From the NCBI RefSeq assembly GCF_058153355.1, contig NZ_JBLWLY010000002.1: a stretch of 64,000 bases of DNA; one strand, given 5' to 3'. The stretch's first letter is position 1; each line of letters begins with the position of its first letter. Positions 52,901-55,900 of this stretch are shown here, one piece after another. A program made the position numbers. This DNA comes from a plasmid.

Positions 52901-55900
52901 TAGGTGCTGTGGGCGTAAAGTTCTGATTCAGCAGATTCGGCGTAACCGGCAGATTGTGGTCAGAGTTTGTGGTCGCCCTGAACTTGCGTTTCTGCTTACA
53001 GTGCAGCCTCAGCTCCTTACGAAGACGTGCCAGTCTGTCACGACCGACGATAATTCCGTTATCTGCCAGCTCCGTCTGGAGCCGCCGGGTTCCATATGTT
53101 TCGCGAGTGCGGATATGTGCCACCTTAATCTCCAGTTTTAGCCGCTCATCACTTTGTTTTCTGTCTGAGGGGGCATGCTGTACCCAGTCGTAATAACCGC
53201 TCCTGGATACACCAGGTACCCGACACATCGCTTCAACAGGGAATTGTTGTCGCCATTGTTCGACTAACGCGTATTTTTCAGCGACTCCCGGGCAAAATAC
53301 GCTGTTGCTTTTTTTAATATATCTCGCTCAAGTCGTGCTTCATTTAAAGCCTTACGCAGTTGCATAACTTCCAGCCACTGTGCGGGAGCCAGGTGTATTG
53401 AGCCCTTTTCTTGCGGCGGTAACCCATTGTCCTAAAGTGCCTTCAGGAACAGATAATCGGGAAGCGCCTTCACTGAGCGAAAGCTGATTTTCAGGAACCG
53501 TTTTGACGGCTTCGGCTTTAAACTCCGTAGAGTAACGTTGGGTTTTTCTGCTCATTATTGGCTCCTTCTGATGCCATTCTATTTCAGGAAGGAGTGTCCG
53601 TTAAACTCAGGCTACCTCACGCTTCAGGCGGGCATTTTCAGCGGCCAGTTCACTTTCACGCTCAGACGAGGTCATCTGTTGCTGCAGTTTGCTGCGCCAC
53701 GCATAGAGCTGAGATTCATACAGGCTGAGTTCACGGGCTGCGGCAGCAACACCGATGCGTTCAGCAAGCTTCAGGGCTTCACTGCGAAATTCAGGCGAAT
53801 GCTGTTTACGTGTTTTTTTGCTGGTTGATATTGTTTTTGTCATGTGAGTCACCTCTGACTGAGAGTTTACTCACTTAGCCGCGTGTCCACTATTGCTGGG
53901 TAAGATCACTAACAATCAGAAAAAATAATGCTTTTAGCCAGTACGCTTTATAACCCCGTCCTTCAGGGCGGAGTTATAAGGCGCATTTTTCTGCATGACG
54001 GTTTTTGTTTAAGATGGTGACATGAAACGACTACAAACCTTCAAATTCCAGTTAAAGCCAGATGGTCAACAGGAGCGTGAAATAAGACTATGCAGAGTAA
54101 AACGGGGCTTTTGTGGTCGAGATCGTACTTTGTCTGTAGCACTGGAGGGGCAACGATTGAAACGCTCAGAGTCTACGTTCAGAGTCAGTCAACACCTGAT
54201 TGATCTTTAAAGCCCTGCGGGCTTTTCGCCTTATATCCCCGCCCGCATTGGGCGAGGGGTTACGGCGTTTTCGCTAAAAAATAGTCGTAACGTGGTTTGT
54301 TTTCCGAATTCCAAGCGGCCCCCTTGTAGGACAAGGGGCCGCAGGTCCATCAAACGATCGTTTGATGGAGAAGGTTGTCTGATAGCTTCATTTATACATA
54401 TGTGCTAATGTGGGTTTGTGTATTTTAAAGGAGATGCGCCTATATGAGCCGCCTGACCATTGACATAACAGACCAGCAGCATCAGAGCCTGAAAGCACTG
54501 GCTGCCCTGCAAGGTAAGACCATCAAACAATACGCTCTCGAACGTTTGTTCCCTGGTGATGCAGATGCTGATCAGGCATGGCAGGAACTGAAAAAAATAC
54601 TGGGAAACCGTATTAACGGTGGGCTGGAGGGGAACGTTTCTACCAAAAGTATCGGAGACATTCTTGATGACGAACTGAGCAGAGATCGTGTGTGACCACC
54701 TATATACTTACAACTGATGCGGAAGCCGACTTGCGAGGCATCATCCGCTACACGCGTAAACAGTGGGGGGCCGCACAAGTTCGTCGCTATATTGCAAGGC
54801 TGGAACATGGTATTGCAGATCTTGCTGCCGGGCGAGGTTCCTTCAGGGATATGAGCGAACTCTTTCCTGAATTACGGATGATACACTGTGAACATCATTA
54901 TGTTTTTTGTCTGCCACGCGGGAGTGAGCCTGCACTAGTTGTTGCGATTTTTCATGAACGCATGGATCTCATGACCCGGCTGAGCGAGAGGCTCAACATC
55001 GAAAGTTAACGGTTAATGAAGTCTAGGCCAGCTTCAACACTTCATCCAGCCGGGTAATCGGGTAATGTTTAACTGCGGCATCGTTTATGTGGTCACATTG
55101 GCCGGAATATCAATTTATGGTTTCGCAGAGGTATACCCCAATGTGACAGGCTGACGCGCCCGTCGGGCTTGTCCAACCCCTCGCCTGTCCAGAAACAAGT
55201 TCTGTACAGACTCACGGTTTGCGCTGTGGGTCAAAACATTAAATACGATCACCAGAAATACTCAATATGTGATTTCGCATGCGAAATTTATTGCATATCA
55301 TTATTGATACTTAATAGTTTATCTGTATACTGTTTATGTCGTCATGAAAGTACGACAAAAACGCAGTAGCAGATAGCTGCTTCTGCATCTGGCGAAACGC
55401 CTGACTCACAGGAGTGTGTATGAAATACCACGATGAATTCTTTTCATTACTGAAATACCCTTTTAAGCCGTGCCGCCCCTTCTCAAACATTTCGCATGCG
55501 AAATCTTAAGGACTGTTACATGACACTGAAAATCGGACCTATCGGCAAACTTATCGTTGTATGTAGTCAGAAGGGCGGAATCGTTAAATCGCAGTCATCC
55601 AGTGAAATCGCACATGACCTTCGTAAAGCTGGTTTCCGTGTGCTTGAAATTGATATGGACTGGACAACTGGTCTGACGGAGAGGGCTTTCCCTGACAGAT
55701 TACCTTACGAGATAGAACGCGAACCTTTAAGTAACAGTTTTACACCCGGTGAAGCGAATACATATCAGCTTTTCTTTTCTGAAACAGATATTCGACCGAT
55801 TGAGCTTCCTGGCGGGCGCTTCTTTATCGGTGCTACCAGTGAACTGAATGAAATTAACTACCGAAACAGCGACTGCATGTTCGACTTCAGGGACCGTATT

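Follow-up and report, generated by a model that had tools for sequence, protein, structure and literature searches.

Which toxin-antitoxin (TA) system lies beside the partition genes of this plasmid, and does it help to retain the plasmid? The question concerns a pair of genes, parD and parE, in a 64,000-nt stretch of contig NZ_JBLWLY010000002.1 (RefSeq assembly GCF_058153355.1). This whole stretch, called the window here, comes from a Shigella-type invasion plasmid (pINV) and is rich in effector genes. The original prediction described the pair as ParDE-like. On sequence evidence, it is more than that, being closely orthologous to the archetypal ParDE of plasmids RK2/RP4. We consider it probable, at roughly 80%, that the two genes form a functional type II TA addiction module of the RK2/RP4 type. 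An RK2-like function is the most likely one because of the high identity of both proteins (87% for ParD and 80% for ParE), the same gene architecture, and a block of upstream DNA in common with RK2.

The family assignment is carried by several matches. ParD matches the Pfam family ParD (PF09386) over nearly its full length (residues 1-77, E=1.3e-33), ParE matches ParE_toxin (PF05016, E=1e-15), and these are the only Pfam domains of the pair; a search of NCBIfam gave no match for ParD or ParE and is uninformative. Against the structure of RK2/RP4 ParD (PDB 2AN7), ParD shows 87% identity (E=2.6e-43), and 72 of its 83 residues are identical to ParD of pUZ8002, an RK2 derivative. A single substitution relative to the pUZ8002 protein falls in residues 1-50, the ribbon-helix-helix (RHH) half that binds DNA. 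ParE is identical to RK2 ParE at 82 of 102 positions (80%). With such identities to RK2 ParD and ParE, the place of the pair within its superfamily, which the original prediction had left to a homology search, is therefore settled. When ParE was searched against PLSDB with tblastn, 130 plasmids were found in three tiers: 12 enterobacterial records at 90-97% identity, IncP-1 plasmids at 79%, and, at 60-75%, numerous plasmids of Rhizobium, Agrobacterium, Pseudomonas, and Xanthomonas. ParE thereby falls into the IncP-1/Rhizobium/Pseudomonas clade of ParE toxins. The 90% cluster of ParE comprises 134 sequences, some of which are present on hundreds of Salmonella/E. coli contigs.

The automatic labels of these homologues raise the idea that the toxin acts like RelE, as an mRNA endonuclease dependent on the ribosome, and is no gyrase poison. 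The Prokaryotic Genome Annotation Pipeline (PGAP) names all of them merely "RelE/ParE family toxin" and "antitoxin", and ParE and RelE have a fold in common (PMC6191456). However, RK2 ParE, to which the toxin is 80% identical, is a demonstrated gyrase inhibitor (PMC6191456). The best PDB sequence match of ParE is M. tuberculosis ParE1 (8C24, E=1.6e-8), further matches (7R5A and 7YCS) bear only the depositor name "Toxin", and none of the matching chains is named RelE. Additionally, the RelE catalytic residues R61, R81, and Y87 are not conserved: they align with H69, H88, and M94 of ParE in a 15%-identity alignment with E. coli RelE, and they are likewise missing from RK2 ParE (PMC6191456). A RelE-like activity is thus hardly credible. 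A single-sequence AlphaFold2 model of ParE, with a predicted local distance difference test score of 53, was too poor to support a family assignment; its order of two helices, three strands, and a C-terminal helix is compatible with ParE.

Both genes look intact. The open reading frames (ORFs) are exactly as first described, an 83-aa RHH antitoxin followed by a 105-aa ParE toxin with a GTG start and a 4-bp overlap, and the claim that the pair is intact and upstream of parAB also held: both frames are open, and parA lies downstream, with about 500 nt between the parE stop and the parA start. The overlap is formed by the GTG of parE at 54692-54694 and the TGA of parD at 54693-54695, an arrangement consistent with translational coupling of the two genes. 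We aligned the DNA of the window copy with that of RK2 and three other enterobacterial copies, and both the start position of parE and the 4-nt overlap are kept in every copy, as TTGA in RK2 and as GTGA in the enterobacterial sequences. Pairwise dN/dS values (nonsynonymous over synonymous substitution rates) for parD and parE against four homologues, all of them intact, range from 0.06 to 0.39, and both genes appear to be under purifying selection. No residue of ParE is private to the window copy when compared with RK2 and three enterobacterial homologues. Because of the Pfam matches, the identities to RK2, the low dN/dS, and the intact homologues, these are not chance ORFs.

The alignment also holds a conserved block of 29 nt just 5' of the ribosome-binding site, whose columns are almost all invariant between RK2 and the enterobacterial copies; further upstream, the DNA is not alignable with RK2. 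Within the block lie a palindrome, ACATATGT, with the RK2 counterpart CACATATGTG, and an extended -10-like element, TGcTAATGT, at 54403-54411. RK2 ParD is known to bind its own promoter (PMC6191456, PMC10776004), and we infer that the block comprises the parDE promoter and the ParD operator. A second palindrome of 24 nt is located about 75 nt 5' of parD, with a Dam site (GATC) at its center. It has one or two mismatches in the E. coli/Salmonella cassettes, and RK2 is without it. This element might serve as an additional operator, as a hairpin acting as insulator or terminator, or as a target of a different regulator.

If the pair works as RK2 ParDE does, a ParD dimer would repress the operon at the conserved upstream block, and the C-terminal part of ParD would wrap around ParE and neutralize it. 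Upon plasmid loss, ClpAP would degrade ParD and leave the stable ParE, and the freed toxin would poison DNA gyrase, leading to DNA breaks, the SOS response, and filamentation. Plasmid-free segregants would then die or arrest, so that the plasmid, and locally the surroundings of the module, would be retained. Inhibition of gyrase by free ParE was reportedly described by Jiang in 2002 (as cited in PMC6191456). In the RK2 system, ParE acts as a gyrase inhibitor and is a stable protein, unlike ParD, which ClpAP degrades (PMC6191456); the operon is repressed by ParD alone (PMC10776004). In E. coli MG1655, RK2 parDE causes post-segregational killing, SOS induction, and filamentation, with survival of 4.2e-2 after curing (PMC10899753).

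Several points weigh against a functional addiction module. Three ParD residues, I52, G59, and R80, are lineage-specific, and all are in the half that binds the toxin. In one published curing comparison, the killing of plasmid-free cells was less efficient with RK2 parDE than with vapBC (PMC10899753), and the effect of one maintenance system on pINV can be masked by others (PMC6519299). A sigma-70 consensus scan upstream of parD called no promoter, and the promoter assignment therefore rests on conservation and the extended -10-like motif. The silent scan and the documented masking would also fit a pair that is only an intact-looking passenger on the parAB fragment, poorly expressed or masked and with no measurable effect on retention. 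The setting of the pair, a mosaic of insertion sequence (IS) debris without target-site duplications, speaks for such a passenger, as does the maintenance without parDE of the Shigella plasmids in PLSDB and of eight E. coli pINV-type plasmids. We nevertheless regard it as unlikely. The ORFs, their overlap, the Shine-Dalgarno sequence, and the upstream block conserved with RK2 are all intact, and dN/dS is well under 1. The island is 99.96-99.98% identical in contigs of two independent E. coli assemblies of the lineage, and a ParE that was not neutralized or not regulated would be counter-selected quickly.

As an alternative to addiction, the main benefit to the host might be tolerance of stress, antibiotics, or heat, or defense against phages. 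A distant system of IncI and IncF plasmids, ParDE-I, confers heat and antibiotic tolerance (PMC6614396), and TA systems have increasingly been tied to phage defense (discussed in PMC10899753). Set against this, the cassette turns up in 37 of the 5,426 E. coli genomes that are complete, in each case on a plasmid and never on the chromosome, and a partition operon adjoins the pair in the window and in two out of three related plasmids examined. The RK2 orthologue is a proven stabilizer and post-segregational killer (PMC10899753), and no defense-island neighbors were seen. Tolerance or defense as the chief benefit is therefore very unlikely; as a further benefit, it would be compatible with an addiction module and does not exclude one.

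The distribution of the cassette shows how unusual its present host is. Its DNA was found in 12 of 72,556 PLSDB plasmids (seven from E. coli, four from Salmonella, and one from Enterobacter), and none of the Shigella records there has it. Among the 37 E. coli carriers are none of the eight pINV-type plasmids that ospD3/ospC1 identify in the RefSeq complete E. coli genomes. Alleles of ParE and ParD exactly like those of the window were found only on short, IS-bounded contigs with the NCBI protein label E. coli, from GCA_015332025.1, GCA_043012465.1, and the Logan assembly of SRR31441161. The OspG allele of the window co-occurs with them in GCA_015332025.1 and SRR31441161 and is also seen in SRR8656992. 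Given this distribution in the databases and the size of the 134-sequence ParE cluster, the clade is moderately common in Enterobacteriaceae, and its presence on an invasion plasmid is exceptional. No paper describing ParDE on pINV emerged from a full-text literature search.

The plasmid itself is also unusual. The proteins encoded in the window include OspD3 (ShET2 family), OspC, IpaH, the omptin IcsP, the NleE-like OspZ, OspF (VRP3), OspG, PhoN2, and OspB. The ospD3-ospC1 region (e.g., 38300-42000) shares only 97.2-97.4% identity with each pINV in PLSDB and among the RefSeq complete E. coli genomes, which therefore points to a divergent, rarely sampled pINV lineage. The suggestion in the original prediction that the contribution of the pair to plasmid retention may be under-appreciated can apply to this rare lineage and does not extend to pINV in general. 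The features of the locus are collected in Table 1.

Table 1. Positions of the parDE pair, its upstream elements, and the neighboring features in the window.
Feature	Position	Strand	Description
parD	54444..54695	+	83 aa; ATG start; RHH antitoxin and putative autorepressor; end coordinate includes the TGA stop
parE	54692..55009	+	105 aa; GTG start; ParE-family toxin; end coordinate includes the stop
GTGA overlap of parE start and parD stop	54692..54695	+	Read from the sequence
parD Shine-Dalgarno GGAG	54430..54433	+	10 nt 5' of the ATG; conserved in the alignment
Conserved 29-nt block ACATATGTGCTAATGTGG...GTGTATTTTA	54396..54424	+	Candidate parDE promoter/ParD operator
Perfect 24-nt palindrome TCCATCAAACGA/TCGTTTGATGGA (= TCCATCAAACGATCGTTTGATGGA)	54346..54369	.	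Central GATC; 100% complementary inverted repeat
Portable parDE cassette	~54324..55141	+	From blastn end-points against parDE plasmids with other neighbors
Imported IncF-backbone fragment (putative), 4.0 kb	54324..58344	+	parDE, parA, parB, orf145, orf107, truncated umuC
parA	55520..56386	+	288 aa; small ParA-type ATPase; Pfam AAA_31, CbiA, MipZ
parB	56386..57417	+	343 aa; KorB-like; Pfam KorB, HTH_ParB, ParB_N
orf145 and orf107	57414-57854 and 57851-58174	+	145 and 107 aa; no Pfam domain
umuC 3' remnant	58181..58344	-	~165 nt; severed by the right IS copy
Left IS600-family copy	52367..53619	-	IS3 family; TG...CA ends
Right IS600-family copy	58345..59597	+	IS3 family; TG...CA ends
IS debris	53620..54323	.	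Truncated IS3-type orfA and ISEc46-like IS200/IS605 end
Serine resolvase	59866..60426	+	Resolvase and HTH_7; beyond the right IS copy; the only resolvase

The parDE genes appear to travel as a small cassette. In blastn comparisons, two parDE-bearing plasmids matched the window over 54331-55141 and 54326-55234, the match of a plasmid with parAB only began at 55128, and the genes flanking the cassette vary between records. In the window, the cassette forms one end of a longer fragment that is collinear with, and 93% identical to, Salmonella houtenae p24399 (IncFIB/IncFII). Under the addiction-module reading, the module would have entered the divergent invasion plasmid on this 4-kb piece of IncF backbone, together with a parAB operon that is not of the P1 type. 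At the far end of the fragment, the umuC remnant matches the end of a Y-family polymerase gene in two relatives at 92%, and a DUF4113 product was called there on a near-identical E. coli contig.

The partition genes downstream of parDE are of a different type than those of pINV, where the canonical ParAB is P1-like (PMC6519299). Against a P1-type ParA query, the small ParA shows only 23% identity across 175 aa; in relatives, too, it is called at a length of 288 aa. The combination of a small ParA with a KorB-like ParB was found in 610 PLSDB records, mostly from Klebsiella and also from Enterobacter, Citrobacter, and Salmonella. By sequence, the adjacent parAB thus differs from the pINV partition operon and is of a kind typical of IncF-type plasmids. 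In the one plasmid with the same parAB that we examined, from E. kobei, a recombinase gene takes the place of parDE upstream of parA. In every examined plasmid with this parAB, orf145 and orf107 follow parB, and they may be accessory to partition. We also observed a 16-nt palindrome, ATTTCGCATGCGAAAT, at 55272-55287 and again at 55489-55504, 217 nt apart; the two copies flank promoter-like sites upstream of parA (55274-55331) and are candidate ParB-binding sites (parS or operator) of the small-ParA/KorB-like-ParB system.

The maintenance systems usually associated with pINV were scored within the window. No P1-like parAB was found there, either with a P1-type query or by comparison with the corresponding S. 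boydii segment. Nothing in the window corresponds to the 3.25-kb P1-type parAB segment of the S. boydii pINV, whose two flanks (compared stretch L012 3070-5249) map to 12359-14358 and 47882-50484, 38 kb apart, with each ending in IS DNA. The absence of the operon and the separated flanks abutting IS DNA suggest that the canonical partition operon was lost or relocated through IS activity. We also searched the window with tblastn for VapBC and CcdAB and for a GNAT/DUF1778 pair taken from a related plasmid record, and found none at E<1e-3. Together with the ParD/ParE Pfam matches, these empty searches agree with the original view that the pair is outside the classic pINV TA set. Beside the canonical P1-type parAB of the S. 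boydii pINV, no parDE remnant was found. As a separate observation, the window encodes an intact reverse transcriptase/maturase of a group II intron (410 aa; RVT_1 and GIIM) at 12651-13883 on the minus strand, adjoining an IS110-family fragment.

The usual flanks of the P1-type parAB thus stand 38 kb apart in the window, both next to IS DNA and without the operon between them. In this rare lineage, the imported parDE and small-ParA/KorB-like-ParB genes may have displaced the canonical pINV systems in their maintenance role, with ParE serving as both an addiction module and a local anchor. We offer this only as a tentative and rather doubtful extension of the addiction-module reading. If it were true, ParE would addict the cell to the whole plasmid and penalize IS-mediated deletions near ospG and ipaH.

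Two IS copies bracket the fragment. They are inverted, 1253 nt long, 100% identical to each other, and spaced 4725 nt apart; the fragment now lies between ospG and a resolvase/ipaH region. No 3-bp target-site duplication was found for them: the left copy is flanked by GGT and CGC and the right copy by TTA and CTG, even when an inversion between the copies was allowed for. Of the signature of a transposed composite element, the bracketing IS pair is present, whereas 3-bp duplications, whether outer or around each copy, were not found. Between the left copy and the cassette, the truncated orfA corresponds to an ORF at 53607-53852, with HTH_Tnp_1 called on a matching E. coli contig, and 54089-54277 is 98% identical to DNA annotated as ISEc46.

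The original prediction placed parDE, the partition operon, and a resolvase in one compact maintenance island between two IS600 copies. This stands in part. The parDE and parAB genes are bracketed as described, but the resolvase lies outside the IS pair, and the IS copies share only about 92% identity with the annotated IS600 of S. boydii NZ_CP026796. The resolvase is 98.5% identical to a Tn3-family-associated recombinase of E. albertii/E. coli plasmids and has no match in any Shigella record of PLSDB; it adds to the non-canonical components of this plasmid. The ORF to the left of the left IS copy encodes OspG and no resolvase. Four full IS600-family copies are present in the window (52367-53619, 58345-59597, ~4183-5441, and 24302-25561), each about 11 bp shorter than the S. 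boydii IS600. Isoforms are usually separated from distinct insertion sequences at 95% identity, and by this rule the element in the window would be a distinct IS instead of an IS600 isoform.

Which TA systems pINV carries, and at what position, affects both plasmid stability in Shigella and enteroinvasive E. coli and the survival of IS-mediated deletions (PMC8923223, PMC5629016, PMC6519299). The cassette was not seen on the other pINV searched, which indicates that pINV maintenance modules can be exchanged when IS elements capture DNA from IncF plasmids. The lineage also provides a natural experiment on whether a gyrase-poisoning ParE can replace VapBC, CcdAB, or GmvAT. As the mechanism is a textbook one, the value of the locus is epidemiological and comparative, not conceptual.

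Among known systems, RK2/RP4 ParDE is the closest in design. The two share their gene order, a ParD of 83 aa, the 4-nt overlap, and a parE start codon other than ATG, along with 87% identity in ParD, 80% in ParE, a nearly identical RHH domain, and the 29-nt upstream block. They differ in their surroundings: RK2 parDE is divergent from the parCBA multimer-resolution operon, whereas the window parDE is upstream of, and co-directional with, parAB. The parE start is GTG in the window and TTG in RK2, and the window ParE is longer by two C-terminal residues (105 versus 103 aa). The distal upstream DNA, with its 24-nt palindrome, is unrelated to that of RK2, and the host is an IS-rich invasion plasmid.

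The enterobacterial IncF-type cassettes match the window in DNA with 89-96% identity over 0.8 kb, including the palindrome and the promoter block. Our examples are p24399 (NZ_CP051369), E. coli C5 plasmid B (NZ_CP010124), and pTD225C4_139 (NZ_CP035861), none of which is an invasion plasmid and all of which are annotated automatically only. The order of parDE, parAB, the two small ORFs, and umuC in p24399 is identical to that in the window. In pTD225C4_139, by contrast, the cassette is upstream of a P1-type parAB, and it lacks any partition neighbor in C5 plasmid B.

The canonical pINV set consists of VapBC (MvpAT), CcdAB, GmvAT, P1-like ParAB, and StbAB (PMC6519299, PMC8923223). The expected role is the same, namely retention of a costly, low-copy plasmid with a T3SS (type III secretion system), and ParE, like CcdB, would target gyrase. 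Nevertheless, these systems have no sequence relationship to the window pair, none of them was detected across the 64 kb, the adjacent parAB is of another type, and ParE is structurally unrelated to CcdB (PMC10899753).

Two further systems have similar roles. In Yersinia enterocolitica, the plasmid pYV carries a ParDE pair that, like the one studied here, lies on a T3SS virulence plasmid and adjoins effector genes; it is required for plasmid maintenance and induces the SOS response and DNA compaction (PMC10203498). Likened by description, it is a functional analogue, and Yersinia is not among the ten genera named for the tblastn matches of ParE in PLSDB. ParDE-I (YacAB) is also a ParE-superfamily TA system with a stabilizing role on enterobacterial IncF/IncI plasmids (PMC6614396). 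Its toxin and antitoxin are only 15% and 11% identical to those of RK2 (PMC6614396), and it therefore belongs to a subfamily other than that of the window pair. Compared with all of these, the parDE pair of this invasion plasmid represents a type of system that is already well understood, here found in a new location, and not a new system.

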